A stretch of DNA of 64,000 nt from Phycisphaerae bacterium (GCA_963666835.2 CAXXGO010000006.1:1056001-1120000), one strand, 5' to 3'; positions 1,721 to 22,172 are shown, counted from the first letter of the stretch. Made by a program: numbers and translations. Notes: a model not told the origin generated them from the sequence alone.

Positions 1721-4700
1721 ATGAAGAAGAAGCATCACAGAGGCGATCGGAGCAGGCGCGGCGATCTCGCCGCGGGACGGAGGCCTTCAACCGGTGCAAC
1801 GCCGGCGACAACTCTCTTGGAGGGCCGATCCGGCAAAACGCCCATTCCCGGCCCAAGCGGGGCCAACCGCCGCTGGGCTCGCCTGCTGATCGGCGGAGCC
1901 CTCGTAACCGCCGCGGTGGCGGTGGCCGTGGTGGTTGTTTCGACCAGCTATCCGGGCGGGGATGCCAACAAGGCCGCGGCGGAGGTTCTTCCGCCCGATC
2001 CGCTGGATAACCCCTTCTCGGTCGAGCCGATCGAGCCGACGCCGCACGTGTCGTGCAATCCGGTGGCCCAGCCGGGGGCGCCCAGGCCGTGGGAGGCGGG
2101 CATCTCGGTCTCGCCCTACTCCACGATGAACGCGGTCAACCGAAACGTTCTTACGGTGATTCCGATTGTCAGTTGGTCGGGCGTCGGGCCGGACGTGTCA
2201 TTTTCGCTCTATCACAATTCGGCGAACTTCGATTCCGAGCTCGATCTCACCCGCGGAATGGGCTTTCGAATCCGACCAGATTGGACGACTTCCTATAGCA
2301 CGCAGATTGTCGATATGGAGACGCTCGGGAAACTGGTGATCGCCGACGACGGAACGCAGGATCTGTACACTCCGAACGGTGAGGGTTGGGATGCCCCTCC
2401 GGGCGTGCATGATGTCCTCACGTTCGATGGAATCAACTACACCCTGAAGCACAAGGATCAGTCGTACCATTCGTTCGATGCCGACGGGCTCCTGGTGGCC
2501 GTGGTCGACGCCGTGGGCAACACCCTGGAGATCGAACGGGACGCGAGTGGACAGATGACCGCGATCAAGGACGCCGCTGACCGCAAGCTGGAATTCGGTG
2601 TTTCGGAGTTCGATTACTTGATGACCATTACCGATCCCATCGAACCCGGGGATGATGGTGATGTTATCAGCGAACGGGTGTGGCAGATCTGTTCGGAGAA
2701 CTGGGGCAAATTCCACGGCGTTACGGATCCCATGGGTTACTTCATATCCATCGAGCGTGACGCCGATGGGCGGATCGACGAAATCAGCGATAAGCACGTT
2801 CCGGAGTCGGGGTACACCGCCCCGAAATACGTCTTCGAGTACGTCGAAGCCGGCAACGTCGATCGAGCCGCGTTGCTGCGCGTGGTTGACCCGCTCGGCG
2901 TTTACCAGGAGTTCTCCAGCCGCTCTATGGTGGACTTCCACGGGGCGATGACCCACACCGACGATCACGGGCACGATTGGTCGTACGAGTACACGTGCGA
3001 GTATCCGGTCTAACCCGCCTATGGCGAGGCGATAACGAACGGTCCGCTCACCGCCATTGAGAACCCGCTCGGCGAGCGGCAATCCTACGAGTGGGACGAC
3101 GACCGCAACAAGACGGTCCAACGCGATGCTCTCGGAAACGAGTGGACACAGGAATACGATGATCGGGGCAACATGACCAAGGCCACCGACCCGCTTGGGC
3201 ACGAACGAAATTGGGAGTACGACGAATACAACAACGTCAGATATCATTGGTATTACACGGACTGGATGCAGAGTCACTGGGTGATAACGGACTACGATCA
3301 ACCGGGTTACCCCACGCTGCCGACGCGGCGCGCCGAGAGCCCCGCGGGCGTCGAGGACGCAGAGACGTTCTTCACATACTACCTGCAAGATCCGCCGGGA
3401 TTCGAGGACGGTGCCCACCGGCACGGCCTGCCCAAGACCGTTACGGACCCGAACGGGGTGGTGACGACCTTTGACTACGACGAGTGGGGCCAGCCGAGCT
3501 TCTATGCCGAGGGGGACACAGCAACATCGGGTGACCCGTCTTACGTCTACCGGCTGTATTCGTCCAATGATTCAGGATCACGCCCGAACATCGTCGCACC
3601 GGCCGGTCCCGGGCCGAGGGATCCGAGCGACAAGAGCTCGCTTCCCGCGGGGGGCGGGGCCATGACACACAACGCGAACAGCTACACGACGAGCAGCAGT
3701 TGTCGCTTCGCGTGCAAGGGAACGTGTCCCCCGGCGGGCGACTTTGCCCCACCGGACGGGTTCCCGCGCATTCCGGGTTTGGCGGTCAGTCCGACGCTCG
3801 ATTATCATTTTCTTGACTGGAAGGCTGAGTATTCGCCCAAAGGCGAGTTGCTGAACTGGTGGGTACCCGAGCCGGATTCCGTCACCCACTCGACGACCGG
3901 TCGGCACTTTCGAATGATGGAATACAACGACGTCGGTGAGCTGGAGGAGATCACCGTCGCCCGCGAGGCTTGGGGGATGGCACACCCTCGCACCTTCACG
4001 TACGATCGTGAGCGTGTTCAAGTGTCCGGCGGGCCGACTAACTGGCACAGGTACACCGGTAAGCAGACTCGGGGCGGCCCGGATGGGACGGAGACTGTCA
4101 CGCAACTCGACGCCGCCGGGCGGGTTGAGTCGGTTTTGCGGCGGCGGGTGGACACGGGCGGAGTGTTGCTTCGGGCCGAGTATTCGTATTATGCCAACGG
4201 GCAGCTTCGCCAGGTTCGATTCAGTAACGATGCGACGGTCGAATACAGCTACGACGCGGCCGGGCGGATTACGGCAATCACGCACCGCGACTACCTCGAT
4301 TACATCATGTTGCGGCTGAGTTATGAATACGATCCGCACGACGCTCGTGGACTGCCGACCAGGATCACGGAGGAAGAAGATACGCTGTACGGTCGGGTGA
4401 CCAAGGCGGTGACGACGTTTCGCTACGACGGAGCGGGGCGGCTGGTCCGCGAGACGCGGGTGGCGAATACGTTATCGTCGTATGATCTGGTTTACACGTA
4501 CGACCTGGGCGGGAATCGGCTGAGCACGATCGACGAGGTGAACGAGGTCGAGACGGTTTATCATCATGACGTCGAGGACGAGGCGGATTATGTGTACGGC
4601 AGCGCCAATAATCGCCTAATGTACTTCGAGACGTTTGACACGAGCGCGCACGGGCACGAGCTCGTCTCGACAACGTATTATTACTACAACGACTACGGCA

Positions 4701-5752
4701 ACATCACGCGGAAGGTGACGCGGCTTGCCAATCCGGAGCCTGGAGAGCGGGAGTATCAAGCGACGTACCTGAGGTACGCGACGAACGGGCAGGCCGTGAC
4801 GTATCTGCTGGGCGAGGAATGGGATTGGAACGGGAATCCACTCGCCGAGGTCACGAATTATGCGGTGACTTTCGGCCGGGAGTTCTGGTATGATGGCGCC
4901 CGGCAGCGATTCCTGAATCGCGAGTTTGATCCGGTCGAATTGACGGGTGACAACATGGTCGTGCTATCCGAAACGTGGTCGGATTATGCGGGCGACAACA
5001 TCTACGCGGATTTCACGCTTAATGGGTCGGACGTGACTATCGCGCAGATCCACGAGCCGGGCATCGGGAAGATGGAGACTCCGTTTGACGTTCCCGAGTC
5101 GGCCTACTACCACGCCGACCACATCGGCACGACCCGTCTGCTCGGCTGGAGCGACTTCTTCGAACCGCGCGACCCGGCCGTGTACACCGCGTTCGGTAGC
5201 TTGGTATCCGGCACGAACCACCGCTACGGCTACGCCGGCAAACACGGCTACCAAGCCCACGCCGACACCCCCTTCCTCCACGTCGGAGCCCGTTACTACG
5301 ACCCGGACACGGGCCGGTTCCTGCAGCGGGATCCGATTGGGATTGGCGGGGGGATGAATGTGTATGCGTATGTGTACAACAACCCAGTGTCACAGACTGA
5401 CCCGAGTGGACATGGATGGTTCGATATTAAGGTATGGGGTGCCAAGGTCTACCTTTTGGCAACCGGTGGTCGGACGTCGTGGCTGGATAATCCTTTGAGT
5501 GTGCAAAGTGCGCAACGTAGAATGCAGGGTCTCGGCGCGGGCTTGGTTCTCGCCTGTGCTTTTCCGGTTGCCGCTCCATATGCTGCTGTGGCCTGGGGAG
5601 GGGCTCGCGTTGGCGGAATAAGTACTGGGAGTCGAGCAGTGGATGACTATCTGGATGGAGGTGCCTTGGGTGCCGGAATAGCAACGCTTCCCAAGATACC
5701 CTTCGCGCCAAAACACGGGATGCTCAAGCCACCGCTGGGAGGTCCGCTTTGA
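1721..5752 (+). pseudogene. Full-length Rhs/YD-repeat polymorphic toxin interrupted by one in-frame TAA at 3011-3013 (or a sequencing error)
   Basis: AAGGAG RBS; N-terminal hydrophobic helix; YD repeats. ORFs 1721-3013 and 3173-5752 share a frame and the gap reads [23 protein letters not shown]. Core ends [28 protein letters not shown], then a Gly/Ala-rich tip. Confidence 0.9.
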
Positions 5753-5824
5753 CCATAGTGCTGTCTGTTATTGCGTTAGAAGGACCTATTCTCCCAGACG
5801 GCCTACTGACAGAAGGAGTATGCT

Positions 5825-6589
5825 ATGGTTATTGAGTTTATAAGGAAGCCTCATTTATGGGGATTCCGTGACCCGCTTTGTTGTTTCGATGCTTTCCAGT
5901 TCATCGCCTACTACGGTGGCGTGTGCTACCTTTTTGGCCCCCTGTTTGTCGGTACCAACGCCAGCGGGATATGGGTCATGGCTATTCTCGCCCCCTTTGC
6001 CATCGGCCCCTGCTTCTGGCTGCGCGAGAGACTGTTGGATCGTCGCGCGCGCGAGGGGCCTGGGACGTTGCCGGACTGCATCTTAGCTTCGTTCAAGATC
6101 GCGGGGCGGGCAGCCCAGATGCAACGAGTTCTGGCACGGCAGCTGCCTCGGAAGCCGGATGGCTGGCGTTTTCGCACCGGGCTCACGTCTGCGCAGCACG
6201 CCGCGCTTCTGGCGGTTGTCTTGGTCGTCTTGCCGGGAATGCGGTTGCTGGAGTGCTCACCGGTAACGCTTTCACTGGTTTGTCTCGGTGCCGATGTGAC
6301 ACTTCTGCTTCAGTACGCTTTCGAAAGGCACGCATACATCGTCCGAGGTGGATCATTAATCGTGGAGCGTCGTAACAGACTGATCGTTACTGCAAGTCGG
6401 GTCATACCGCTAAGTGCGGCGGCCGTGGAAGCCGATTTGGCGGAGGGCATCTTGAGGATACGTACGACCGAGGAGACAATGTCGATCGATCTGCGGAGTA
6501 TTCTCAACCCGCATGGCCTCCTGAGCGCAGTTCTGAGCGCACGGATCGAAACGGAGGTCGAGCTAGGTGCGGTGGAAGCCTGCGTTTAG
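5825..6589 (+). CDS. Putative immunity membrane protein for tip 1
   Basis: AAGGAG RBS, ~4 hydrophobic segments, directly after the Rhs tip. Confidence 0.7.
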   Translation: MVIEFIRKPHLWGFRDPLCCFDAFQFIAYYGGVCYLFGPLFVGTNASGIWVMAILAPFAIGPCFWLRERLLDRRAREGPGTLPDCILASFKIAGRAAQMQRVLARQLPRKPDGWRFRTGLTSAQHAALLAVVLVVLPGMRLLECSPVTLSLVCLGADVTLLLQYAFERHAYIVRGGSLIVERRNRLIVTASRVIPLSAAAVEADLAEGILRIRTTEETMSIDLRSILNPHGLLSAVLSARIETEVELGAVEACV

Positions 6590-6595
6590 ATCGCA

Positions 6596-6692
6596 GATAC
6601 GGTCGGCAGTCGCTTTGACGGTCGACCACAGTTACTGCATTCGTGCCACCTCGCGGCACCGAGCGGGTTGATCCGTTCGGTGCCGCGGGTGG
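6596..6692 (+). repeat. Cassette-boundary element, copy 1
   Basis: Hairpin 6646-6692: CCACC-t-CGCGGCACCGAGCGG-gttgat-CCGTTCGGTGCCGCG-GGTGG. Confidence 0.9.
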
Positions 6693-6695
6693 TTT

Positions 6696-8510
6696 GTGGT
6701 TCGCGCATTCACGTACGATCGCGAGCGGGTCATGGCCGCAGCGGGATCGTTGTTCTATTGGTGGAAGTACACCGGCAAGCAGACTCGGGTCGGGCCGGAT
6801 GGGGCGGAGACTGTCACGCAGCTCGACGCGGCCGGGCGGGTTGAGTCGGTTTTGCGGCGGCGGGCAGACACCGGCGCGACGCTGCTGAATGCCGAGTATT
6901 CGTACTATGCCAACGGGCAGCTTCGCCGGGTCGATTATGCCAACAGCGCGGCCGTCGAGTACGCGTACGACGCGGCCGGGCGGATTACGGCGATCAATCA
7001 CCTGAACGCCGCCGGTCAGATCATGTTGCGGCTGAATTACGAATACGATCCGTATGACGTCCGCGGGCTGCCGATTATGATCACGGAAGAACAAGACACG
7101 CTGGCCGGCACGGTGACGACGGCCGTGACGACGTTTGAGTATGACGGGCTGGGACGGCTGAAACACGAGACGCGGGTTGGCGATCCGGCGTCGTCCTATG
7201 ATCTGGCGTACACCCACGACGCGGGTGGGAATCGGCTGAGCACGATCGACGAGGTGAACCACGTCGAGACGGTGTATCATTACGACGTCGAGGACGAGGC
7301 GGAGTACGTCTACGACAGCTTCAATAACCGTTTGATGTATTTCGAGACGTTCGATACGAGCGGTGCCGAGGCTGAGCTGGTCTCGACCACGTACTACTTC
7401 TACAACGATTACGGGAACGTCACGCGGAAGGTGACGGAGTTGGCGGACCCCGAGCCGGGCGAGAAGAAGTATCGTTCGACGTATCTCAAGTACGCGACGA
7501 ACGGGCACGCCGTGACGTATCTCGTGGGCGAGGAGTGGACCTATCCGGAGTCGGATTATGCGGTGACGTTTGCCCGGGAGTTCTGGTATGATGGTGCCCG
7601 GCAAAGGTTCTTGAATCGCGAGTTTGATCCGGTCGCGTTGACGGGTGACAACATGGTCGTGCTATCCGAAACGTGGTCGGATTATGCGGGCGACAGCATC
7701 TATGCGGATTTCACGCTTAACGGGTCGACGTTGACCGTGCCGCGGATCTACGAGCCCGGTATCGGCAAGGTGGAAGACCCGTTTGGCACCTTCGATCGAG
7801 CGTACTACCACGCTGATCATATCGGCACGACGCGGCTGCTCGGCTGGAGCGACTTCTTCGAACCGCGCGACTCGGCCGTGTACACCGCCTTCGGTAGCTT
7901 GGTCACCGGCACAAACCACCGCTACGGCTACGCCGGCAAACACGGCTACCAGGCCCACGCCGAAACCCCCTTCCTCCACCTCGGAGCCCGCTACTACGAC
8001 CCGGACACGGGCCGGTTCTTGCAGCGGGATCCGATCGGGATATTCGGCGGACTGGATGTGTATGAGTATTGCTCCAGCAATCCGGTGGCCTCGATCGATC
8101 CGAGTGGAAACGGGAACTTCGGCAGCCTCAATGGCGATGCGCAGTATCGTAGTTGGCGTGAACAGGGTTACTCACCGTCCAGCGCCAGCAGGCAAATGGA
8201 ACGCATGGCACCCGATGAGTTCAAGGCCGGACTGATGGTCGGTGTAGGTCTCGGAACGGCCATGGCGGCGTGGTACGCGGCGCCTTACATCGCCAGCGCG
8301 GCAGCTGCTGCGCCAGGGGTCGTCGCCGGTGGTGCTCGGGCCGTCGCCAGCGGTGCTAGAGCGGCGGGCCCCGCTATCGCATGCGGCGCAAGGGCAGCTT
8401 GGCCGTATGTTCGACGAGCAGGAGCGTCGGGACTGAGTGAATTCTGGAAGGGGGCGGCCTGGACAGCCGGCGCGCTGGTGAGCGCCTATGCAGCGAGCCA
8501 GCTTCTTTAG
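6696..8510 (+). CDS. Orphan 5'-truncated Rhs core plus tip 2 (Ala/Gly-rich, hydrophobic)
   Basis: Starts at [10 protein letters not shown] (same point as ~3989 in the main gene); Rhs core signature and DPSG. Confidence 0.85.
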   Translation: MVRAFTYDRERVMAAAGSLFYWWKYTGKQTRVGPDGAETVTQLDAAGRVESVLRRRADTGATLLNAEYSYYANGQLRRVDYANSAAVEYAYDAAGRITAINHLNAAGQIMLRLNYEYDPYDVRGLPIMITEEQDTLAGTVTTAVTTFEYDGLGRLKHETRVGDPASSYDLAYTHDAGGNRLSTIDEVNHVETVYHYDVEDEAEYVYDSFNNRLMYFETFDTSGAEAELVSTTYYFYNDYGNVTRKVTELADPEPGEKKYRSTYLKYATNGHAVTYLVGEEWTYPESDYAVTFAREFWYDGARQRFLNREFDPVALTGDNMVVLSETWSDYAGDSIYADFTLNGSTLTVPRIYEPGIGKVEDPFGTFDRAYYHADHIGTTRLLGWSDFFEPRDSAVYTAFGSLVTGTNHRYGYAGKHGYQAHAETPFLHLGARYYDPDTGRFLQRDPIGIFGGLDVYEYCSSNPVASIDPSGNGNFGSLNGDAQYRSWREQGYSPSSASRQMERMAPDEFKAGLMVGVGLGTAMAAWYAAPYIASAAAAAPGVVAGGARAVASGARAAGPAIACGARAAWPYVRRAGASGLSEFWKGAAWTAGALVSAYAASQLL

Positions 8511-8541
8511 CAGGGTGGAAGCACGAAACGGAGAAACGCCA

Positions 8542-11188
8542 ATGAACAGTTGGTTCGTCCCGGGATGTGTTGCGGCGGTATTGCTATCTAGGCTGATTGG
8601 CGGGCGCCTATGTAAGCGGTTCGCCGATCGCATGTTCTCCACGGAGCTATCGCATTTTGGTGATGCTCGGGATAGGAAGGCAGCATTGGACAATGCGAAC
8701 CCGTTCAGCGCAAGCAAGTCCCTGTGGCGGTACCCGCTGCCCCTCGTGCAGGGGCTCGCCGCGGGGACGATCGCGACGCTTCTAGTCCTCCTGCTACGCA
8801 TTCCGAGCTCTGTCCCAGATGCACTTGCGTGGGGTTCGATCCTGTTTGTTATATTCGTTTTGACCATGTTGATTGAGCTATGGTCGGCCAGAAGGGCGAT
8901 CACTCGCGCGCTTCGCGAGCGACTGATTGCGGAGGGTACTATCGTTTGTCGTCGATGCGGCTACGATCTTCGCGGACAGATAGAGCAACGCTGCCCGGAG
9001 TGCGGGTGCGCCACGGAAAGCCTGGGAAAGGAGGATTGCGACATGGGTCCTTGATGACTGCATGAAACCTTTCGCCGGGACCCGGCAGGTATCCAATCCT
9101 GCCCGGCAAAGTAGACCGACAGCCGGAAGCGAGTCTTGCGTGGTGTACGGGTAACCTGCACTGCGAAGCGTAGACAGCGAGTGTGCAGGCCGTGTGATCG
9201 AGCCTCGAAAGAGGGCTATTCGTGGGAGCCGACGTCGTCCGCACTGTACGGAAGGCAGCATCGGATCGCCGCAATCGGTCTGGCGTATCCGATCCCACCG
9301 GGGTCTAAGAGCAGGGCATGTACACACGAGGGTCCCCCAGGAACGTGGGAGGTCCTGTCATCTCCACCCGGAACAAAGCGGCTTCGGGAGAGCCGGAGCC
9401 AATCTCCTGGCCCAGGGATCGGCGTCGGATTCCATGGGAGATACGAAGAGCCGGCGCTACGGGTGGTATTGCCAAGCGAAGGAAACGAAGTGCGGCGAAA
9501 CGGGTGGCAGGAAGTCGGAGTACCGAATAGTACCAAAGAACCGGGGGAATCCTACCCGTGGGAGACCCCGTGGAGGAAAGGCGGTACCGAATCATGGAAC
9601 CGTTAGAGGGACACACGCCGAACGCCCGGACGTTCGAGAGCGTGTCAACAAAACGACGGCGGATAGCGATGCGTGCGAAGCGAAGTCCGGAGATGAGCTT
9701 CACCACGTTAGCCCACCACATTGACTTAGCGTGGCTACGTTCTGCGTACGATCAGGTTCGCAAGGATGGAGCCCCCGGCGTCGACCGAGAGACGTCGGCC
9801 TCCTACGCAACGGATCTGAGGGCAAACCTCCAATCCCTGTTGGACCGTGCGAAGTCTGGGTTGTACAAAGCCCCGCCGGTGCGTCGGGTTCATATCCCGA
9901 AAGGCACCGGTGGCAAGACTCGGCCCATCGGCATTCCCACGTTCGAGGACAAGGTCCTGCAACGTGCGGTGGCGATGGTGCTGGAATCGATCTACGAGGA
10001 GGACTTTCTGGACTGCTCGTATGGCTTTCGCCCCGGACGCAGCGCCCATCAGGCGTTGGAGGCTTTGTACGAGCAGCAGAAAGCGACGCGGGCGGGGTGG
10101 ATTCTTGACGTGGATGTTCAGGGATTTTTCGATGCTCTGGATCATGCTCATCTTCGGGAGTTTCTCAAGCGACGGGTGCGAGATGGTGTACTGACACGAT
10201 TGATTGGTAAGTGGCTGAAAGCAGGCGTGCTGGAGGACGGACGGGTTACCCGCTCGACCACCGGCAGCCCGCAAGGGGGCGTGATCTCACCGATCCTGGC
10301 AAACGTCTATCTGCACTATGTGCTGGACGTTTGGTTTGAGCAGGAGGTGATCCCACGGCTCCACGGCCGGGCGTTTCTTATCCGCTATGCGGACGACTTC
10401 GTCATTGGGTTTTCCGATGAACGTGATGCCCATCGGGTGTTGGCGGTACTACCGAAGCGATTCAGTAAGTATGGCCTGACTGTTCATCCGGAGAAGACGC
10501 GATTGGTCCGGTTCAATCGGCCGAACGATCGCGACTCTACAGCCAAGGGCGATAGGCCGGAGTCGTTTGACTTTCTCGGCTTCACGCACCATTGGCGGAA
10601 GTCCTGGCGAGGGTACTGGGTTGTCTCTCGTAAGACGGCCTCTGATCGCCTGAGCCGCTCGCTCCGCAACATCTCGGCGTGGTGCCGTGACCATCGCCAC
10701 CTGAAGGTGCGCGAGCAGCATGCACGGCTCACGCAGAAGATACGCGGGCATTATGCCTACTACGGGATTACGGGTAATGGCAGTTCTCTGACAGCGTTCT
10801 GGGAGGGCGTCAAACGTGCGTGGCGGAAATGGCTTGGGCGAAGATCCCAACGCAGCTATTTCAACTGGGCAGCGTTTGTCCGCCTCATGGAGCGTTACCC
10901 GCTCCCCAAACCGGTCATCGTGCATTCAGTATACCACCGACAGCGAAACCAAGATTCGAGGAGCCGGATGCGGTAATTCCGCACGTCCGGATCTGTGGGG
11001 GGCCTGGGTGAGCAATCACCCAGGTCTACCCGACGAACGCGTTCGACATTCAGGCGATGATCGACAAGTCAGTTGAAGGGAAGACGGTGCTGGCGCCGGC
11101 GAGAGACGAAGAACAGTCGAGTGCCGATACAACCGATGGGCAAACAACGGGATCGAGTGACGGCTTGACGACCGACCATAGTGATTGA
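8542..11188 (+). CDS. Putative immunity membrane protein with C-terminal zinc ribbon, split by a group II intron (exons 8542-9005 and 11035-11188; 205 aa spliced)
   Basis: Spliced frame reads CRRCGYDLRGQIEQRCPECG-NAFDIQ..DHSD*; the paralog at 21576 reads CPECG-NPF. Confidence 0.85.
9006..11034 (+). mobile_element. Group II intron lacking an endonuclease domain
   Basis: 5' GTGCG at 9006; domain V GAGCCGGATGCG..CGCACGTCCGGATC near 10961; domain VI with bulged A (11028) ending AC at 11034; EBS1 CCGCACT (9239-9245) complementary to exon AGTGCGG (8999-9005). Confidence 0.93.
9558..10976 (+). CDS. ltrA: Group II intron reverse transcriptase/maturase (start may be ATG 9594)
   Basis: APGVD, RRVHIPK, RPIGIP, YGFRPGRS, GSPQGGVISP, RYADD, FDFLGF, X domain; no HNH domain. 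Confidence 0.95.
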   Translation: MGDPVEERRYRIMEPLEGHTPNARTFESVSTKRRRIAMRAKRSPEMSFTTLAHHIDLAWLRSAYDQVRKDGAPGVDRETSASYATDLRANLQSLLDRAKSGLYKAPPVRRVHIPKGTGGKTRPIGIPTFEDKVLQRAVAMVLESIYEEDFLDCSYGFRPGRSAHQALEALYEQQKATRAGWILDVDVQGFFDALDHAHLREFLKRRVRDGVLTRLIGKWLKAGVLEDGRVTRSTTGSPQGGVISPILANVYLHYVLDVWFEQEVIPRLHGRAFLIRYADDFVIGFSDERDAHRVLAVLPKRFSKYGLTVHPEKTRLVRFNRPNDRDSTAKGDRPESFDFLGFTHHWRKSWRGYWVVSRKTASDRLSRSLRNISAWCRDHRHLKVREQHARLTQKIRGHYAYYGITGNGSSLTAFWEGVKRAWRKWLGRRSQRSYFNWAAFVRLMERYPLPKPVIVHSVYHRQRNQDSRSRMR

Positions 11189-11242
11189 GTGAATGCCACC
11201 ACGCGGCACCGGGCGGGTTACTCCGTTCGGTGCCGCGGATGG
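11146..11242 (+). repeat. Cassette-boundary element, copy 2
   Basis: Hairpin 11196-11242, loop gttact. Confidence 0.9.
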
Positions 11243-12395
11243 TTTCGTGTGCTCCCCGCCGTACCAAGGAAGGGCTGGGGAGGTTCTGCCGGATGGACGG
11301 TCTATCGTCACTGCCGACACCGCGAAGGCGGGCGAGCGGGAGTACGCGGCCGTGCGGTTTGAGTACGCGGTTAACGGGACGGCGGTCAGCTTCGTCATGG
11401 GCGAGCGGTGGCGGTGGGATCCGGACGCGGGCGGGAATCCGACGGATTTTGAGATTACATACGCGCGCGAGTTTCGGTATGATGGAGCTCGGCAGAGGTA
11501 TCTGAATCGGCAGTTGGATCCCGCGGCCTTGCAGGAGTCCGGGCAGTTGGTCTCTTTGCGCGATACGTGGTCGGACTACTCCGGGGATTCGGTCTACGCC
11601 GACTACAGCTTCGACGGCGGCGCGCCGGAGGTGTCGCGGATCTACGAGCCCGGCGTCGGCATGTCGGTCGACCCCACGGCCGTGGCGGGCACGCGGTACT
11701 ACCACGCTGACCACCTGGGCACAACCCGGTTCACCTCGGACGGTGCCACCGGTGCGGTCGTGGACAGTTCGGCCTACGAGGCCTTAGGCGCCCCAATCGA
11801 CGGGGCGAACCACCGCTACGGCTACGCCGGTGCCTACGGCTACCAGTCGCACGACATCGATGAAGTAGCCGCCCTCGACCCCCCACTAGACCCGGCCACC
11901 GCCTTCCCCTTCCTCCACGTAGGAGCCCGCTACTACGACCCGGCGACGGGACGGTTCCTGCAGAGGGATCCGATTGGGATCGCTGGGGGGTTGAATGTCT
12001 ATGCGTATGTATACAACAACCCGGTGTTACGAACTGACCCAAGTGGAAACGGCTTCTGGGATGGAAACAACGCGTTTCACGATTGGATCGCACGGAAGTT
12101 CTGGATGCACCCAATCAACCCAGCCAAGAGTCGGCTCCCGAAAATGGGAGATGCCGAGGCCTGCGCCTGGGTGGCCGGCTACACGGCCGTTGGCACTGTG
12201 GCGTTGTACCGTGGCGGAAAGTATCTAGCACGGTTTGCTCGGATACACCACGGTCCGTTTAAGGGGCATATGGGAGGCGCGTGGCACTTCCACATCGGTC
12301 GAAGAGCTGGCGAACTAGGGCGTTATCATCTTCCACAACAGTTTCGCGGATGGTGGGGCAACCTGAAGAGCATCTTACGGCGTAAATGGAGGTAA
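11193..12395 (+). CDS. Orphan Rhs fragment of a second core type plus His-rich tip 3; Rhs homology starts ~11280
   Basis: Core EYAAVRFEYAVNG..ERWRWDPDAGG differs from the main gene; [16 protein letters not shown] and DPSG. Confidence 0.8.
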   Translation: MPPRGTGRVTPFGAADGFVCSPPYQGRAGEVLPDGRSIVTADTAKAGEREYAAVRFEYAVNGTAVSFVMGERWRWDPDAGGNPTDFEITYAREFRYDGARQRYLNRQLDPAALQESGQLVSLRDTWSDYSGDSVYADYSFDGGAPEVSRIYEPGVGMSVDPTAVAGTRYYHADHLGTTRFTSDGATGAVVDSSAYEALGAPIDGANHRYGYAGAYGYQSHDIDEVAALDPPLDPATAFPFLHVGARYYDPATGRFLQRDPIGIAGGLNVYAYVYNNPVLRTDPSGNGFWDGNNAFHDWIARKFWMHPINPAKSRLPKMGDAEACAWVAGYTAVGTVALYRGGKYLARFARIHHGPFKGHMGGAWHFHIGRRAGELGRYHLPQQFRGWWGNLKSILRRKWR

Positions 12396-12396
12396 T

Positions 12397-12897
12397 ATGT
12401 CTGCAATACTCGAACAGTATGAAACCTGCTGCGCGCCTGGCGTCACGGAGAGCGTCATGGGTGACGATCAGCTTATCGGTCATGTAATTGATGCGCTTGA
12501 CAGTAGTCTTCTGTTCCAATCTGTTGTAGTTGTGCGTGGTAAGTTCCTTCGAAACGCGAAACATCTTGGGCTTGACAGGCATGTGACACTGCTGTACAGC
12601 GATAACCGGGAGTATCTTCGGCACTACAAGACGGCGTTGGTGGCTGCAAGCTCCTCGCAAGGACATTGCAACATCCTGTATGCGCCGACACGTATGGACA
12701 CGTTCTGGGGAACTTTGGTAGAGAGGGGCTGCATCCAATCTCAGAATTGGCAGCCCTTGGGCGAAGAAGAGGCACGAGAGGTACTTGGTGCCGACGGGCT
12801 GGCATCACTGATTGACACGGTTGAACCGCTGTGTCCGAATGGCTGGCTTACGTTTTGGCATGACGCGCAACACGTCGTCAAGTGTACATACGTATGA
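12397..12897 (+). CDS. Putative soluble immunity protein for tip 3
   Basis: Starts 1 bp after the toxin stop with a GGAGG RBS; no TM segment; lower GC. Confidence 0.75.
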   Translation: MSAILEQYETCCAPGVTESVMGDDQLIGHVIDALDSSLLFQSVVVVRGKFLRNAKHLGLDRHVTLLYSDNREYLRHYKTALVAASSSQGHCNILYAPTRMDTFWGTLVERGCIQSQNWQPLGEEEAREVLGADGLASLIDTVEPLCPNGWLTFWHDAQHVVKCTYV

Positions 12898-12903
12898 GTC
12901 GGA

Positions 12904-13000
12904 AAAGGGGTCGGGAGTCGTTCTGACGCCCGACGACGATGATTGAATGATTGCCACCACGCGGCACCGGGCGGGTTGATCCGTTCGGTGCCGCGGGTGG
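12904..13000 (+). repeat. Cassette-boundary element, copy 3
   Basis: aaaGGGGTCgggagtCGTTCTGAC, hairpin 12954-13000. Confidence 0.9.
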
Positions 13001-13003
13001 TTT

Positions 13004-14764
13004 GTGGTTCGCACATTCACGTACGACCGTGAGCGTGTTCAAGTGCCGGGCGGGCCAACGCACTGGCAGAGATACACCGGCAAGCAGACTCGGGTCGGGC
13101 CGGACGGGACGGAGACTATCACGCAACTCGACGCGGCCGGGCGGGTTGAGTCGGCTTTGCGGCGGCGGGTGGACAATGGCGGAGCGTTGCTTCGGGCCGA
13201 GTATTCGTATTATGCCAACGGGCAGCTTCGCCAGGTTCGATTCAGTAACGACGCGACGGTCGAATACAGCTACGACGCGGCCGGTCGGATCACGGCAATC
13301 ACGCACCGCGACTACCTCGATTACATCATGTTGCGGCTGAGTTATGAATACAATCCGCACGACGCTCGTGGACTGCCGACCAGGATCACGGAGGAAGAAG
13401 ATACGCTGTACGGTCGGGTGACCAAGGCCGTGACGACGTTTCGCTACGACGGACCGGGCCGGCTGGTCCGTGAGACGCGGGTGGCGAATCCGTTATCGTC
13501 GTATGACTTGGTTTACACGTACGACCTGGGCGGGAATCGGCTGAGCACGATCCACGAGGCGAACGAGGTCGAGACGGTTTATCATTACGACGTCGAGGAC
13601 GAGGCGCAGTATGTCTACGGCAGTGCCAATAACCGGCTGATGTACTTCGAGACGTTCGACACGAGCGCGTACGGGCACGAGCTCGTCTCGACGACGTATT
13701 ATTACTACAACAACTACGGCAACATCACGCGGAAGGTGACGCAGCTTGCGGATCCGGAGCCCGGGGAACGGGAGTATCATGCCACGTACCTGAAGTACGC
13801 GACGAACGGGGAAACCGTAACGTATCTGCTGGGCGAGGAGTGGGATTGGAACGGGAATCCACTCGCCGAGGTCACGAATTATACCGTGACGTTTGCCCGG
13901 GAGTTTTGGTATGATGGCGCCCGGCAAAGGTTCTTGAATCGCGAGTTTGATCCGGTCGAATTGACGGGTGACAACATGGTGGTGCTGTCCGAAACTTGGT
14001 CGGATTATGCGGGCGACAACATCTACGCGGATTTCACGCTTAATGGGTCGACCGTGACCGTGCCGTGGATCTATGAGCCGGGTATCGGCCGGGTTGGCAA
14101 CCCGTTCGGCGACATGGCGGATTGGGACACGGGCTACTACCACGCGGACCACATCGGTACAACCCGCCTGCTGAGCGACAACGACGGCCTGCCGAAAGAC
14201 GATTCAGTGTACACTGCCTTCGGTAGCCTGGTCGGGGGCACGAACCACCGCTACGGCTACGCCGGCAAACACGGCTACCAAGCCCACGCCGACACCCCTT
14301 TCCTCCACGTCGGAGCCCGCTACTACGACCCGGACGTGGGGCGGTTCCTGCAGCGGGATCCGATTGGGATTGATGGGGGCCGAAACGTGTACGCCTATGC
14401 GCACTCGTCACCCACACTAGCCGTTGACCCGTCCGGGCTGAAGATTTGGACGGAGGTGAAGGGTAAGCGACGCAAGGCCACCAAGGACGGCTGGCAGAAC
14501 CAGCAGCACCAGTTTAGCTACGACGATCACGATGCAGGGATGGCGTCTATTGCCGCAGGCGCGGCAGCAGTTGTGTTCGGTGCGGCGGCCCTCGCCTTCC
14601 CAGAGCCGGCGATAACGAAGTACGCTGGCACGTTGGCCCTGGCAGAAGGTGTCGGTGGATTAGCCTGCGCCGCGTATGCCTTCAACCCCGAAGTCATCAG
14701 GGACGAATGGGTTGATATCGGCCCGCTCGTTCCGTACAAGCCGGGGGAACGCCCACAGTTGTAG
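13004..14764 (+). CDS. Orphan Rhs core plus tip 4
   Basis: Starts [10 protein letters not shown]; core nearly identical to the main gene; DPSG then a tip with hydrophobic helices. Confidence 0.85.
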   Translation: MVRTFTYDRERVQVPGGPTHWQRYTGKQTRVGPDGTETITQLDAAGRVESALRRRVDNGGALLRAEYSYYANGQLRQVRFSNDATVEYSYDAAGRITAITHRDYLDYIMLRLSYEYNPHDARGLPTRITEEEDTLYGRVTKAVTTFRYDGPGRLVRETRVANPLSSYDLVYTYDLGGNRLSTIHEANEVETVYHYDVEDEAQYVYGSANNRLMYFETFDTSAYGHELVSTTYYYYNNYGNITRKVTQLADPEPGEREYHATYLKYATNGETVTYLLGEEWDWNGNPLAEVTNYTVTFAREFWYDGARQRFLNREFDPVELTGDNMVVLSETWSDYAGDNIYADFTLNGSTVTVPWIYEPGIGRVGNPFGDMADWDTGYYHADHIGTTRLLSDNDGLPKDDSVYTAFGSLVGGTNHRYGYAGKHGYQAHADTPFLHVGARYYDPDVGRFLQRDPIGIDGGRNVYAYAHSSPTLAVDPSGLKIWTEVKGKRRKATKDGWQNQQHQFSYDDHDAGMASIAAGAAAVVFGAAALAFPEPAITKYAGTLALAEGVGGLACAAYAFNPEVIRDEWVDIGPLVPYKPGERPQL

Positions 14765-14833
14765 ACTTCTGCACGCAATACCGGAGTCATCGGGAAACAA
14801 CGTCCGTGCCTCACAAAGAAGGAGCCGGTCTTT

Positions 14834-14998
14834 ATGAATTGGACGTACGGAAGAAAGCTGTGCGTTGTAGCGATTGTCCTTAGCCTACTCGGGATCTTGA
14901 TGGGTTCAGTGGCAATCTGTTCGCGGAGTCCGATTTCGCCAAGTTCGATGTCGCAAGGCAGACCGGCGTTGCCGCAGCAAAACGCGCCTGTTCCCTGA
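14834..14998 (+). CDS. Small 54-aa single-TM ORF, not in the ORF track
   Basis: AAGGAG upstream; MNWTYGRKLCVVAIVLSLLGILMGSVAICS.. Confidence 0.4.
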   Translation: MNWTYGRKLCVVAIVLSLLGILMGSVAICSRSPISPSSMSQGRPALPQQNAPVP

Positions 14999-15008
14999 GA
15001 TCCACCTG

Positions 15009-15644
15009 GTGTGCAGAGCCTGCGAAGTCGGCATCGACGGGAAAAGCACAGGAACACAGCCTGTCGAGGCGAGTAGGCGCGCGCGTTGTGGAGCCACGCC
15101 CGTTCGAATTGGAATCGGGCAGGCCTGTGCAGACTGTCACAGTGGCGGTGTCGTCCTGGTCGGGCTGCGAGAAGCCGCCGGGCGCGGCGCGCGTACGCGC
15201 ATTGTGGGGATCGGCATGTTTGCGATTGCTGTGCTGGTCATCTGCCTGACAGTGGGTGTCGTTGCGTGGGTCGTCGGCGTGCTCCTTGCGACGTATACGT
15301 CGTGGAACGCGTCGACAAGGACAGTCGTGAACTTCCTCGTGGTAACGCCTATACTTGGCGGACTCCTGGCATCTGCGACTGGGGCACTTCCCGTACGCGT
15401 GGTAATGTGCCCGCACTGCAGGCGTATCAGGCGATTGGGGTTTGGGAAACGGGTGCCCACGGAATGGCAGCATATTGTGGAACCGACAGGCTTCTGCATG
15501 GCTTGCGGATATTCACTCCGTGGAATTACTGAGCAGCCGAGGTGTCCAGAGTGCGGGGATCCGTTTCCGAAGGAGTGGCTGAAGATCACCCGTCAAGCGG
15601 ATGAGGAGCCCTCGGTCGAGTATGACGTTGTTGCGAAGGAGTGA
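15009..15644 (+). CDS. Putative immunity membrane protein with zinc ribbon (start uncertain)
   Basis: 2 TM segments, CPHC, CMACGYSLRG..CPECG. Confidence 0.7.
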   Translation: MCRACEVGIDGKSTGTQPVEASRRARCGATPVRIGIGQACADCHSGGVVLVGLREAAGRGARTRIVGIGMFAIAVLVICLTVGVVAWVVGVLLATYTSWNASTRTVVNFLVVTPILGGLLASATGALPVRVVMCPHCRRIRRLGFGKRVPTEWQHIVEPTGFCMACGYSLRGITEQPRCPECGDPFPKEWLKITRQADEEPSVEYDVVAKE

Positions 15645-15684
15645 AGGAGCAGACACAGGGGTTGGGAGTCTCTGTTGGGCGAAT

Positions 15685-15779
15685 GACGGAGTCGAGGGTC
15701 TTTTCGACGGCCGATCACAGTGATTGCCTTAGTGCCACCTCGCGGCACCGGGCGGGTTGCTCCGTTCGGTGCCGCGGGT
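15685..15779 (+). repeat. Cassette-boundary element, copy 4, fused to an internal Rhs position
   Basis: Hairpin 15735-15779; right arm joins Rhs RVGDPASS via shared CGCGGGT. Confidence 0.85.
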
Positions 15780-17052
15780 TGGCGATCCGGCGTCGTCGTT
15801 TGATCTGGCGTACACGCACGACGCGGGCGGGAATCGGCTGAGCACGATCGACGAGGTGAACCACGTCGAGACGGTGTACCATTACGACGTCGAGGACGAG
15901 CCGGAGTACGTCTACGACAGCTTCAATAACCGGCTGATGTATTTCGAGACGTTCGATACCAGCGGTGCCGAGGCTGAGCTGGTCTCGACGACGTACTACT
16001 TCTACAACGACTACGGGAACGTCACGCGGAAGGTGACGGAGTTGGCGGACCCCGAGCCGGGCGAGAAGAGGTATCGTTCGACGTATCTCAAGTACGCGAC
16101 GAACGGGCACGCGGTGACGTATCTGGTGGGCGAGGAGTGGACCTATCCGGAGTCGGATTATGCGGTGACGTTCGCCCGGGAGTTCTGGTATGATGGTGCC
16201 CGGCAGCGATTCTTGAATCGCGAGCTTGATCCGGTTGCGCTAACGGATGGCATTGTGGATGTGGAATCAGAAACCTGGTCGGACTATGTAGGCGACAGCA
16301 TCTACGCCGACTTCACGTTTGATGGGTCGACCGTGACCGTGCCGCGGATCTACGAGCCGGGCATGGGGAAGGTGGACGGCTTATCTGTCGGTGGCGCGGC
16401 TTACTACCACGCCGATCACATCGGCACGACCCGTCTGCTGAGCGGGTACAACGGCAGCGCGGACGATGAGTCAGTATACAGCGCCTTCGGAGGTCTGGTG
16501 TCCGGCACAAACCACCGCTACGGCTACGCCGGCAAACACGGCTACCAGTCCCACGCCGACACCCCCTTCCTCCACGTCGGAGCCCGCTACTACGACCCGG
16601 CAACGGGGCGGTTTCTGCAGAGGGATCCGATTGGGATTGATGGGGGGTTGAATGTGTATGTGTATGCACTAAACAACCCCGCGTTGCAGGTCGATCCTTC
16701 TGGGCTACACTGGGCGATTGATGGGCAGCCGCAGCATCATCTTCCCGATATCGATGGGCACGGGATTACTCCTCCTCCTGCGCCTTCGGTACGTCCGCCT
16801 CAGCCATTGGTTCCAACACCCGTTCCCTATGCGGATGACTGTGTAATGACTTGTGTCCGAATATACCTAACCCCATTGCTATACTGTAAGCCAGCGTCCT
16901 TCGGTCAGATTGGAAGGCACGAAGATAACCAAGACAACTGTGAAGACCTGGGTGGCACCTGGGGCTTCTACTCAGACGAAGACCCGACTTTCACGTGGAT
17001 CGGCCATAAACTCATCAGGAGGCGTGGTAGGCCAAGCCGTGGTGGTGTTTGA
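15757..17052 (+). CDS. Orphan Rhs core (further deleted) plus Pro/Cys-rich tip 5
   Basis: Rhs core signature and DPSG; PPPAPSVRPPQP linker; four Cys in the tip. Confidence 0.8.
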   Translation: MLRSVPRVGDPASSFDLAYTHDAGGNRLSTIDEVNHVETVYHYDVEDEPEYVYDSFNNRLMYFETFDTSGAEAELVSTTYYFYNDYGNVTRKVTELADPEPGEKRYRSTYLKYATNGHAVTYLVGEEWTYPESDYAVTFAREFWYDGARQRFLNRELDPVALTDGIVDVESETWSDYVGDSIYADFTFDGSTVTVPRIYEPGMGKVDGLSVGGAAYYHADHIGTTRLLSGYNGSADDESVYSAFGGLVSGTNHRYGYAGKHGYQSHADTPFLHVGARYYDPATGRFLQRDPIGIDGGLNVYVYALNNPALQVDPSGLHWAIDGQPQHHLPDIDGHGITPPPAPSVRPPQPLVPTPVPYADDCVMTCVRIYLTPLLYCKPASFGQIGRHEDNQDNCEDLGGTWGFYSDEDPTFTWIGHKLIRRRGRPSRGGV

Positions 17053-17531
17053 TCGACAGTACGTCTTATAATGAAGCGATAATCGGAGAAGCGGGTGAAG
17101 GTCCTTCGTCGCGCGGAGTCATGCCCGCAATAACGATCCATCTTATCGAGGAGCATGGGAAGCCGATGTATCAGGAGAGAACTCACGAGTGGATCGCGCG
17201 AGTGTTTGGAGCTGTGTTCGTGTTTCTTCTGGTAGGCGTTCTTGCTTTCGATCTGCTAAGCAGATTGCATATAGCCGACCACCAGTGGCGACTGCCTGGC
17301 ATGCTGTTTCTTGCCGGTAGTGCGGGACTGGGTGCCTCGTTAATCGTCATTCGAATCACCCGACGAGCACGGCCGACGCCACCTGGGCGATGTCGCAAGT
17401 GCGGGTATATTCTATTCGGGGCTCCGGGACCCAACTGTCCGGAATGTGGGACGCCTTTTACTGTCTCGGGCACCGAGGGCAAGATGACGAATAACGGGGT
17501 CGGGAGTCGTTCTGACGGCGGATCGGAGTGA
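17049..17531 (+). CDS. Putative immunity membrane protein with zinc ribbon (start may be ~17167)
   Basis: 2 TM segments then CRKCGYILFG..CPECG. Confidence 0.75.
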   Translation: MIDSTSYNEAIIGEAGEGPSSRGVMPAITIHLIEEHGKPMYQERTHEWIARVFGAVFVFLLVGVLAFDLLSRLHIADHQWRLPGMLFLAGSAGLGASLIVIRITRRARPTPPGRCRKCGYILFGAPGPNCPECGTPFTVSGTEGKMTNNGVGSRSDGGSE

Positions 17532-17589
17532 TTGAATAGGTGCCACTACGCGGCACCGGGCGGGTTAGTCCGTTCGGTGCCGCGGGTGG
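17493..17589 (+). repeat. Cassette-boundary element, copy 5
   Basis: aacGGGGTCgggagtCGTTCTGAC, hairpin 17543-17589. Confidence 0.9.
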
Positions 17590-18994
17590 TTTGTGGGTCG
17601 CGCATTCACGTACGGCCGCGAGCGTGTTCAAGTCTCCGGTGGGCCAACGTATCGGCACAGGTACACCGTTGAGCACACTCGGGTCAAGCTCGCTGGGACG
17701 GCTGAAACACGAGGCGCGGGTTGGCGATCCGGCATCGTCGTATGATCTGGCGTACACCCACGACGCGGGCGGGAATCGGCTGAGCACGATCGACGAGGTG
17801 AACGAGGTCGAGACGGTTTATCATTACGACGTCGAGGACGAGGCGCAGTATGTCTACGGCAGTGCCAATAACCGGCTGATGTACTTCGAGACGTTCGACA
17901 CGAGCGCGTACGGGCACGAGCTCGTCTCGACGACGTATTATTACTACAACGACTACGGCAACATCACGCGGAAGGTGACGCAGCTCGCGAATCCGGAGCC
18001 CGGGGAGCGGGAGTATCACGCGACGTACCTGAAGTACGCAACGAACGGGCAGGCCGTGACGTATCTGCTGGGCGAGGAGTGGGATTGGAACGGGAATCCC
18101 TACTCCGAGGTCTACAATTATACGGTGACGTTCGCCCGGGAGTTCTGGTATGATGGTGCCCGGCAACGGTTCTTGAATCGCGAGTTTGATCCGGTCGCGT
18201 TGACGGGTGACAACAGGGTGGTGCTATCCGAAACCTGGTCGGATTATGCGGGCGACAGCATCTACGCGGATTTCACGCGTAATGGGTCGACCGTGACCGT
18301 GGCACGGATCCACGAGCCGGGGATCGGGAAGATGGAGACTCCGTTTGACGTTCCTGAGTCGGCCTACTACCACGCCGACCACATCGGCACGACCCGTCTG
18401 CTCGGCTGGAGCGACTTCTTCGAACCGCGCGACCCGGCCGTGTACACCGCCTTCGGTAGCTTGGTCACCGGCACAAACCACCGCTACGGCTACGCCGGCA
18501 AACACGGCTACCAGGCCCACGCCGAACCCCCCTTCCTCCACCTCGGAGCCCGCTACTACGACCCGGACACGGGCCGGTTCTTGCAGCGGGATCCGATCGG
18601 GATTCGCGGGGGGGGGAATGTGTATGTATATGTGAACAACCACCCGAGTGCAGCCTTCGATCCTGATGGGCTCAGGAGTATCTACGACGATTGGAGTCCA
18701 CTGCCGTTTGGGCCAAGAGACGAGGCGGAGATCGAAGGGACTCAGCGAGGCACTGGAGTAGCGCTTGCATGCTTCGCAACCGCAGCTGTGGCAGCGGTTG
18801 CCGTGGAAGCTGGCGTTCCCGCAGCCGTTGCTGGTGCAGGCCGTATTGCTGCGAGGACGGGAGGAAGATGGGCCTGGAAGGCTGGCGTATGGGTTTGGCA
18901 AACGCAGGCGAAGCTCGAGAAAGTGATCGCCAAGAACCCGGGGAAGTCCGGGCTAGTTGCGTGGATGATTAAGGAGATCTACGAGCGGCTTTGA
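17540..18994 (+). CDS. Orphan Rhs core (internal deletion near 17690) plus hydrophobic tip 6
   Basis: RAFTYGRERV start in one frame, jump to LGRLKHE in this frame; DPDG. Confidence 0.8.
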   Translation: MPLRGTGRVSPFGAAGGLWVAHSRTAASVFKSPVGQRIGTGTPLSTLGSSSLGRLKHEARVGDPASSYDLAYTHDAGGNRLSTIDEVNEVETVYHYDVEDEAQYVYGSANNRLMYFETFDTSAYGHELVSTTYYYYNDYGNITRKVTQLANPEPGEREYHATYLKYATNGQAVTYLLGEEWDWNGNPYSEVYNYTVTFAREFWYDGARQRFLNREFDPVALTGDNRVVLSETWSDYAGDSIYADFTRNGSTVTVARIHEPGIGKMETPFDVPESAYYHADHIGTTRLLGWSDFFEPRDPAVYTAFGSLVTGTNHRYGYAGKHGYQAHAEPPFLHLGARYYDPDTGRFLQRDPIGIRGGGNVYVYVNNHPSAAFDPDGLRSIYDDWSPLPFGPRDEAEIEGTQRGTGVALACFATAAVAAVAVEAGVPAAVAGAGRIAARTGGRWAWKAGVWVWQTQAKLEKVIAKNPGKSGLVAWMIKEIYERL

Positions 18995-19281
18995 CGAGCG
19001 AGGTCCAGTGTGACAGTGCTTCTCGCTGTGGAATGGGGCCAATGCGAGCTGGAACACCGGTGTGGAATCAGCCGCCGCCTGTTGACGGCCCGAGGCTAAC
19101 GGGACAGGATAAGGACACTCAACCGTCCGCCGTGGCGGATGACCAAGGCACGGGCATGGCTAGCCCGCTGACGTGAGCAAGCTCAGCAGAGCTGATGGGT
19201 GTCCTTGTCCTGCCCAGACGAGAGTAGGATAGAGTGTGCTTCTAGCCGTGGCTCGCTCGTACGAAATGCGGGGAGAGTACA

Positions 19282-19545
19282 GTGACTCAGCACAGCAGAT
19301 TTTGGGTACTATCAAGGGCATTCGGTAGCCTTTCCATCTGCCTGGTGATTGACCTGCTGGTCTTTGAAATGGACTGGAAAACAGGTCGGGTAGACTGGGT
19401 GCCTTTCTTACGAGGCTGGGGGATCCTGTTCGGGGTCTTTGTCTTCTTTCTCCGAAAGCCCCTGTTTCATAAGGGTTGGAAGAGCCATCAGGAAGACGAG
19501 AACACTTGTGAACGCTGCGAACAGGAGGATAGGGAGACCCGATAA
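19282..19545 (+). CDS. Small putative immunity membrane protein for tip 6
   Basis: GGAGA upstream of GTG; two hydrophobic segments; CxxC near the end. Confidence 0.5.
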   Translation: MTQHSRFWVLSRAFGSLSICLVIDLLVFEMDWKTGRVDWVPFLRGWGILFGVFVFFLRKPLFHKGWKSHQEDENTCERCEQEDRETR

Positions 19546-19642
19546 CACGGCCGGAGGGATGACTAACGCTCGCGTGGATTAATCCGGCGAGACAGTGCAT
19601 CTTCTCGATCCTGCCGATCGGCCGGGACGATCCCAGGTCGCA

Positions 19643-19739
19643 AACGGGGTCGGGAGTTGTTCTGACGGCCGACCACGATGATTGAATGAGTGCCACCACG
19701 CGGCACCGGGCGGGTCAGTCCGTTCGGTGCCGCGGGTGG
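19643..19739 (+). repeat. Cassette-boundary element, copy 6
   Basis: Hairpin 19693-19739, loop gtcagt. Confidence 0.9.
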
Positions 19740-21575: not shown

Positions 21576-22172
21576 ATGCGGATGTTCTCTTTCTCCTTTG
21601 CGGCTCTTGTTTCGGTGGGTGTCGCAACGACGCTTCTGTCTGGACTGATCGGTGGGCGACTACGTGTTGCATTGGCATCTCGTATGTTCGCCATGGAGCT
21701 ACAGCATTACGACGGCGCCGCCGGGAACATCGCCTTGGAGCAAGCATTCCCTTTTACCAGGAAGCGGTATGTGTGGAAGGTGCCCCTGCCTTTCATTCAC
21801 GGCGTTGCCTCCATGACTGCGGCCATGATATTGGTGTTCGTCTTGCCGATTCCCGAGGATATACCAGATGTGTATGTCTTGGGGTTCTTTGTAGTCATTA
21901 TTGACGTGTTGATCATGTTGGTTGAGTTGCACTTGGCTAGGATAGCGATCATTCGTGTGCTTCGCGAGCGACTGATTGCGGAGGGTACTATCGTCTGTCG
22001 TCGATGCGGCTACGATCTTCGCGGACAGATAGAGCAACGCTGCCCGGAGTGCGGGAACCCGTTTTCCCTGACGCCGGAGAACGCGTCGACCCGCGGACAA
22101 AGCGGGCCCCCGCCTATGGAAGACACAAGGCAGACAAAGGGAGGCGTTTCCCGGGACGACCATTGCCATTGA
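21576..22172 (+). CDS. Putative immunity membrane protein with zinc ribbon (paralog of 8542)
   Basis: GGAGG RBS; 3 TM segments; LRERLIAEGTIVCRRCGYDLRGQIEQRCPECG. Confidence 0.8.
   Translation: MRMFSFSFAALVSVGVATTLLSGLIGGRLRVALASRMFAMELQHYDGAAGNIALEQAFPFTRKRYVWKVPLPFIHGVASMTAAMILVFVLPIPEDIPDVYVLGFFVVIIDVLIMLVELHLARIAIIRVLRERLIAEGTIVCRRCGYDLRGQIEQRCPECGNPFSLTPENASTRGQSGPPPMEDTRQTKGGVSRDDHCH

Follow-up and report, generated by a model that had tools for sequence, protein, structure and literature searches.

A class E group II intron lineage that probably specialises on the codons of one protein motif, CPxCG

The window, a 64,000-nucleotide stretch of the genome of a Phycisphaerae bacterium (GCA_963666835.2, CAXXGO010000006.1:1056001-1120000; genome G000 below), contains a membrane-protein gene that is interrupted by a complete group II intron inside the last glycine codon of its C-terminal zinc ribbon. 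An orphan Rhs module lies directly upstream of the interrupted gene, and three further genes of the window carry the intron's target without an insertion. The features are the following, with coordinates counted from the first letter of the window.

6696..8510, plus strand: orphan Rhs module that immediately precedes the host gene; the C-terminal domain shares 80% identity with that of the module 19686-21551
8542..9005, plus strand: host gene, 5' exon, encoding a membrane protein whose C-terminal zinc ribbon is CxxC-x13-CPECG; the last 2 nt are bases 1-2 of the Gly codon
8992..9005, plus strand: target TGYCCN(G)ARTGYGG, with the IBS2 core at 8993-8996 and IBS1 at 8999-9005
9006..11034, plus strand: complete group II intron of 2029 nt, GUGCG...AC, assigned to class E
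9006..9054, plus strand: intron 5' end read in the host frame; Gly completed, then 15 residues and TGA at 9052-9054; predicted unspliced product of 170 aa
9211..9216, plus strand: EBS2 GAGGGC, of which GGGC pairs with exon positions -10 to -13 (Pro and Cys codons), from covariation over 19 intron types
9238..9245, plus strand: delta U9238 (by position) and EBS1 CCGCACU
9306, plus strand: EBS3 U, forming a G-U wobble with base +1 of the 3' exon, from covariation in 16/16 intron types
9594..10976, plus strand: intact intron-encoded RT/maturase of 460 aa with YADD and without an endonuclease domain
10958..11034, plus strand: domain V with its AGC triad at 10962-10964 and the 5-nt loop UAAUU; domain VI with a bulged A at 11028
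11035..11188, plus strand: host gene, 3' exon; last base of the Gly codon and a 50-aa low-complexity tail
15543..15557, plus strand: empty target in the gene 15009-15644, fitting EBS1, EBS2 and EBS3
17436..17450, plus strand: third empty target, in the gene 17049-17531, with a single EBS1 mismatch at -6
22041..22055, plus strand: empty target in the paralog 21576-22172, identical to the occupied site for 59 nt before and 4 nt after the insertion point

The 5' exon ends with TGCCCGGAGTGCGG at 9005, the intron runs from GTGCG at 9006 to CCCGAC at 11034, and the 3' exon starts with GAAC at 11035. Specifically, the element combines a GUGYG start, an AY end, domains I, V and VI and an internal RT reading frame, and Rfam places domain I (RF02005) at 9093-9313 with an E-value of 6e-42 and domains V-VI (RF00029) at 10959-11034. 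The segment CCGCACT at 9239-9245 is the exact reverse complement of exon positions 8999-9005, which gives an EBS1-IBS1 pairing of 7/7, and splicing is predicted to join the exons at 9005/11035, yielding 205 aa from the ATG at 8542. The sequence-only reading of the window had placed the insertion in the CPECG Gly codon with the same 7/7 pairing and the same 205-aa spliced frame, and all of this was re-derived from the sequence.

The intron reading frame, which begins 588 nt into the intron, matches TIGR04416 with 357 bits (cut-off 300) and PF00078, and matches PF08388 slightly below the cut-off. Its RT is 52.5-52.7% identical to two class E references, which fall among its near relatives, and 34.6% identical to one class F reference, which sits on a long branch. 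In line with this, the intron lacks an endonuclease domain and has the 5-nt domain V loop of class E, a loop also found in class F according to the accessible text of PMC3753933. Assignment to class E is thus supported with few references placed, namely two E plasmid introns and one F intron whose class labels come from PMC8919778 supplementary Table_3. A plain fold of the 5' 395 nt of the intron gives a z of -0.63. Two other identities were rejected: class C, whose introns use terminator or attC sites with a hairpin upstream of a short IBS1 and have no EBS2, because the window intron has a covarying EBS2 and an EBS1 of 6-7 bp, and the IIB1 clade of start and stop codons, because the insertion lies in an internal Gly codon, the RT is of class E and the reading frame starts 588 nt in.

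Other elements were seen beside this intron. A second group II intron family is present in G000 as 12 near-identical copies (C6:320514, 476949, 556561, 674085, 687195, 696766, 727301, 801130, 1555894 and 2624676; C7:45964; C1:23864), whose RT is 45% identical to the window's; these lie mostly just after a palindromic element ending in ..GCCGG[AG]ATG, with AC GGA next. A class E-like relative with 58% RT identity is inserted twice in L016, at 1037 and 5083, at sites that look like what we take to be integron attC sites. The window also holds a tRNA gene at 59969-60041 on the minus strand.

The two other sites pointed out in the sequence-only reading are both present, in that 22048-22055 and 15550-15557 each read AGTGCGGG. 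This 8-mer occurs further in the window at 17319, at 17398 and twice on the minus strand, and its count in the genome is 200 against 202 expected, that is, without enrichment. The 14-mer TGYCCNGARTGYGG, in turn, occurs 75 times in the genome against 2.0 expected. Between host (8947-9005) and paralog (21996-22054) the last 59 nt before the site are identical, with 49% protein identity in the N-terminal parts, which suggests conversion or crossover in the part of the gene that encodes the ribbon.

In G000, a blastn search with the intron alone returns three more copies, all 5' remnants (443, 346 and about 53 nt), so that the genome has four copies, one whole and three remnants, all at CPxC-GG; the remnants follow CP(E/K)C-GG in different host frames. 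Searches free of exon sequence were made with intron DNA against 61, 101 and 279 genomes and with the EBS1 stem-loop against 54 metagenome stretches. The introns of G000, L184, L171, G066, G067 and G125 form one clade with support of 99/93 and RT identities of 64-78%, in a tree of 31 rows picked from a quick 89-row tree plus three references. Twenty-one copies, found without exon in the query, are assignable to this clade by domain I or the RT tree. The consensus TGYCCN(G)ARTGYGG precedes 18 of the 21, which come from few related genomes and about seven intron lineages, and none of the 27 relatives that fall outside the clade and whose domain I was located. The full CxxC..CPxCG frame surrounds 15 of the 21 copies, compared with 84 of the 660 sites in G000 that satisfy EBS1 and EBS2 pairing with wobble allowed. 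Of the 18 consensus sites, three are outside the full frame: one at a first knuckle (CLECG), one at a CPDCG downstream of a stop and one with TAA. The three copies off the consensus comprise a tandem insertion at an intron end (L148), a copy in G050 C11 whose flank is unrelated and a decayed copy carrying one additional G.

Ten more short remnants and contig-end pieces from the exon-free searches all lie at the consensus; these stand outside the count of 21, since their clade assignment is not independent of the flank. Eleven further copies come from junction patterns that contain exon, and this search, which is positive in 11 of 279 genomes of the order and in none of 400 other genomes of the phylum, was left out of the specificity count because its query contains exon. 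The 27 outside relatives each have their own EBS1 and a matching exon, and L143, L146 and L159, which lie outside the clade and share the same or a near-identical EBS1 start with a different EBS2, sit in other contexts. The earlier proposal that an expanded gene family offers the intron a repeated motif for homing is therefore borne out by the 18/21 and 15/21 counts. It was to be judged by whether homologous introns lie in unrelated contexts, and the tabulated flanks divide along the clade boundary, with unrelated contexts outside the clade and the consensus predominating within it.

The target family itself is large. A census of G000 yields 91 CxxC..CPxCG motifs, 74 of them of the CxxCx[YFH] type, and 70 of its 75 consensus sites lie inside CxxC..CPxCG ribbons. 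Six genomes have 75, 91, 55, 74, 53 and 66 consensus sites, with backwards controls of 0-2. Occupancy is low, at 4 of about 75 sites in G000 and about 12 of about 91 in G066.

Covariation across intron types shows how the exon is read. After three duplicate wrong starts, one remnant and one intron with an interrupted EBS1 were dropped, EBS1 pairs on average 5.4 of 6 bases over 19 intron types against 3.0 with shuffled exons, and the longest EBS2 run, in the segment after CGAAA, is 4.4 against 3.3; for neither do any of 2000 shuffles reach the observed value. Position 9306, picked in a post hoc scan of about 370 positions, pairs with the opening base of the 3' exon in all 16 types (7.6 expected); this covariation rejects an absence of EBS3 constraint. 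Within the clade, EBS2 GGGC faces positions -10 to -13, and an RNA G stands opposite the third base of both Cys codons, so that TGC and TGT both pair. The 28 exon-free consensus sites (18 + 10) have C 20/T 8 at -12, C 21/T 7 at -3 and A 20/G 7/T 1 at -6, all four bases at -9, and eight invariant positions. EBS3 is A before T in both G067 copies, G before C in L171, and U in G000 and in G066, where 8 of 10 copies precede A or G; in G125, U stands before C. A contig from run X5, at window position 9243, has an EBS1 loop variant with two extra bases, as in G066 and G067, and therefore represents a second clade allele in a sample of the same study.

Pairing of EBS1 with IBS1 had been put forward as what sets the target. 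It does pair 7/7, but EBS1 alone is insufficient and was rejected as the targeting rule, given 875 strict and 14,986 wobble sites in G000 and an 8-mer at chance level; EBS2 and further positions are needed. Among these is a T at -14, invariant in 28 of 28 sites, which has no partner among the pairings found; a search by eye for a pair like the EBS2a pair described in the accessible part of PMC8643678 gave nothing clear. Because only 84 of the 660 sites fitting EBS1 and EBS2 belong to the CPxCG family and T-14 lacks a partner, the rule must include more than RNA pairing. Target bases beyond such pairing are usually explained by the RT (PMC4424553, in the part available), and we infer that recognition by the RT may contribute to target choice here.

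The same 660 sites could be read as a sign that insertion is broad, occurring wherever EBS1 and EBS2 pair, with selection afterwards keeping the harmless copies at gene ends. The enrichment of remnants in hosts with a C-terminal ribbon would agree with such a survivor effect. However, the near-identical copies of G066 and G067, which are recent because they are near-identical, already sit at the 14-mer, and these include insertions that cut off tails of 108-372 aa and one at a site with TAA in place of Glu. Harmless antisense and intergenic EBS matches, moreover, are unoccupied. We regard a survivor effect as quite unlikely, and targeting of the motif itself as the preferred reading.

The copies also bear on how the intron spreads. 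In G066, ten long copies occupy ten different sites, and near-identical introns have different 5' and 3' exons in hosts that are unrelated outside the motif; because the flanks differ beyond the motif, the copies are new insertions and not moved cassettes. In population reads, a contig of run X3 ends exactly at 11034 with a depth of 33, where the host gene has about 5, and joins to other sequences occur at 8992; this fits several insertion sites. Spread by duplication or recombination of intron-bearing host genes in place of retrohoming might be suspected in a recombining cassette array such as the window, where the 59 nt at the site are the same in host and paralog. The distinct flanks largely refute it, the X3 depth and joins also stand against it, and we hold it to be very improbable. 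A separate arrangement at G075 C1:1992071-1993796 (L208, minus strand) is inside-out, with the last 43 nt of the intron, two reading frames ending in CPECG and the first 140 nt of the intron, and may record recombination between two intron copies. Reads with the intron at 22054, which the sequence-only reading suggested looking for, are absent among the matches listed (contigs, from 4 of 8 runs), as is any joint skipping 9006-11034, and a contig from run X3 spans 22054 with the site empty.

Seven Rhs modules occupy window positions 3173-21551, with C-terminal domains of 107-133 aa, most of which contain hydrophobic Gly/Ala-rich stretches and have no Pfam match. An inverted repeat of about 45 nt precedes orphan Rhs modules at 11197, 12955, about 15736, about 17544 and 19694, and could be a terminator or a recombination site. 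The host gene at 8542 stands directly behind the module 6696-8510, and its paralog behind the 80% identical 19686-21551, so by position the host gene fits an immunity gene. Pfam and NCBIfam return no immunity family for the host gene and no match that names a function, and the ESM Atlas matches of the paralog are all unnamed, below 0.9 and mostly from Planctomycetota. Two host homologues, C1:1494081 (48%) and C7:71707, have no cognate Rhs C-terminus in the genome, the former with Rhs cores at a distance of about 11 kb on the opposite strand; since orphan immunity genes are known, this is weak counter-evidence. The 48% homologue belongs to an array at G000 C1:1490000-1497500 (L281) of small membrane-protein genes, many of them ending in a zinc ribbon, with Rhs cores 7-18 kb off on the other strand, and the array could be one of orphan immunity genes. 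No homology was found between the window gene at 5825 and a gene of this C1 array (E 0.96).

For a wider count, Rhs cores were located by TIGR03696, and a copy was counted as in the immunity position when a core on its own strand lay no more than 3 kb upstream. Among 36 genome-placed copies, a count that excludes four metagenome contigs (several short), G149 and the G050 C11 copy, 8 are in the immunity position, 13 lie within 5 kb of a core and 23 do not; immunity genes thus make up only part of the hosts. In G000, G066 and G067 taken together, a core within 5 kb is commoner at occupied than at empty sites (6/21 against 21/205, Fisher p 0.025), but for the immunity position the difference is not significant (2/21 against 12/205, p 0.63). 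None of 12 copies in G066 is in the immunity position, and 4 of 5 in G098 are. The Rhs association is real in some lineages and at most mildly enriched overall. The earlier claim that the intron travels with toxin cassettes is thus partly supported.

Taken in full, the sequence-only reading would have the intron specialised on Rhs immunity genes, travelling with toxin cassettes, with immunity dependent on splicing. The window copy, G067b, four G098 copies, G087b and G050a do lie 0.8-2 kb behind an Rhs core, occupied sites are oftener near a core, and host and paralog each follow one of two similar Rhs C-termini; a hydrophobic residue at +3 would also be lost without splicing. The 23 copies away from any core, the absence of G066 copies from the immunity position, the homologues without a cognate Rhs C-terminus and the missing immunity family all stand against it, as do 19 remnants unable to splice. 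Specialisation on immunity genes is therefore unlikely, and specialisation on the motif, with Rhs-linked genes as one group of hosts, is the reading that we retain.

Without splicing, the host RNA would be translated into 155 native residues through CPECG and 15 intron residues, 170 aa in all. In 21 aligned relatives the invariant residues end at the CPECG Gly, and several relatives stop within 5 residues of it; among membrane-type members in G000, tails have a median length of 14 aa. In a model of the paralog, the pLDDT is 91 at 151-160, 67 at 161-170 and less than 60 beyond, with one bridge at +2. Additionally, the 19 unspliceable 5' remnants persist, and a membrane segment precedes the ribbon in 17 of the 19 remnant hosts, against 43 of 71 empty sites (p 0.014, with a baseline from G000 only) and 11 of 16 full copies (p 0.14, not significant). 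On the other hand, position +3 after CPxCG is mostly occupied by a hydrophobic residue (F, I, V, Y, L), in whose place the intron encodes Thr, and this may impair the ribbon of the unspliced product. The early in-frame stop was rejected as a special adaptation, since class E introns outside the clade share it. The sequence-only reading had the native immunity C-terminus depend on splicing; this holds for the 50-aa tail, whereas the invariant residues would be made without it. As the unspliced mRNA encodes the protein through CPECG plus 15 residues and the remnants persist, dependence of the host on splicing is doubtful and, in our judgement, unlikely.

Taken together, we propose, with a probability of about 0.85, that the window intron is one of a lineage of selfish class E group II introns that have specialised on a single protein motif, targeting the codons of CPxCG. 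The spliced intron RNA with its RT would reverse-splice into the coding strand directly after the GG of the CPxCG Gly codon. EBS1 would read (Glu)-Cys-Gly, EBS2 Cys-Pro and EBS3 the third base of Gly, the third base of Pro being left unread, and EBS3 (U, A or G) varies by lineage and tracks the Gly codon used. Replication-fork priming is established for En-minus introns and would presumably serve here, with splicing and mobility probably continuing today. Each chromosome would offer many homing sites because the motif closes the zinc ribbon of 50-90 divergent genes per genome, and unspliced mRNA would still give a protein through CPECG because the ribbon is the last conserved part in most hosts. 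Insertions would then probably be cheap, and dead 5' ends could persist as a new C-terminus of the host; genes in the Rhs immunity position, the window host included, would be one subset of hosts. A bolder extension is possible but tentative: the EBSs may be tuned to the genetic code, with wobble G/U at synonymous positions reading the peptide CPECG and EBS3 swaps opening synonymous Gly codons, which would make the intron a retroelement that seeks out a motif and alters C-termini throughout a large family of membrane proteins; 2-kb homologies in Rhs or cassette arrays could drive rearrangement, as perhaps in the G075 arrangement.

With class E introns as described in the accessible parts of PMC3753933 and PMC3552965, the clade shares an En-minus RT/maturase, a IIB-like RNA, EBS1, EBS2 and EBS3 and the 5-nt domain V loop. 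Unlike other class E relatives, whose EBSs change freely and whose sites are unrelated, it keeps EBS1 and EBS2 on the CPxCG codons down to 64% RT identity. The IIB1 clade, for example the groEL introns (PMC12584367, in part), is likewise monophyletic and tied to a low-cost position in protein-coding genes; it belongs to CL1, has a large extra subdomain (300-700 nt near the 5' end) and uses start and stop codons of housekeeping genes, whereas the window clade is of class E and targets the codons of a motif inside the proteins of a large paralogous family. Other introns also survive by homing into a many-copy sequence at low occupancy: the available portions of the respective papers describe RmInt1 in ISRm2011-2 (PMC5894124), E.c.I9 with free 'Rsh IS' copies (PMC3522654) and class C introns after terminators or in attC (PMC4424553, PMC7306698, PMC7923331). 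What those introns recognise is either a single repeated DNA element or a DNA structure, whereas the targets of the window clade lie in divergent host genes and have nothing in common but the codons of five residues. Inteins and group I introns likewise insert at the most conserved residues of host proteins, and the accessible part of PMC2814812 reports no such preference for group II introns; the logic there is that the element is hard to lose, while here the sites are many and probably cheap. No report of a CPxCG-codon target was found in the open-licence literature, and the accessible parts of PMC2504315 and PMC7159879 do not mention one.

The chemistry is ordinary retrohoming, and it is the niche that is new. 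The clade is a counter-example to the lack of group II preference for conserved sites reported in the available part of PMC2814812. It also provides a natural target set with known EBS alleles for the recognition rules of class E; EBS2 is dispensable for splicing in vitro according to the accessible part of PMC3753933, and a role of EBS2 in homing is probable. Annotators should note that a C-terminus like CPECG-CATE(S/K) in these genomes is an intron remnant and not host sequence. To the survival strategies described previously, which use mobile elements, positions after terminators, attC sites and start or stop codons, the clade adds homing on the codons of a short conserved motif that the host lineage has multiplied.
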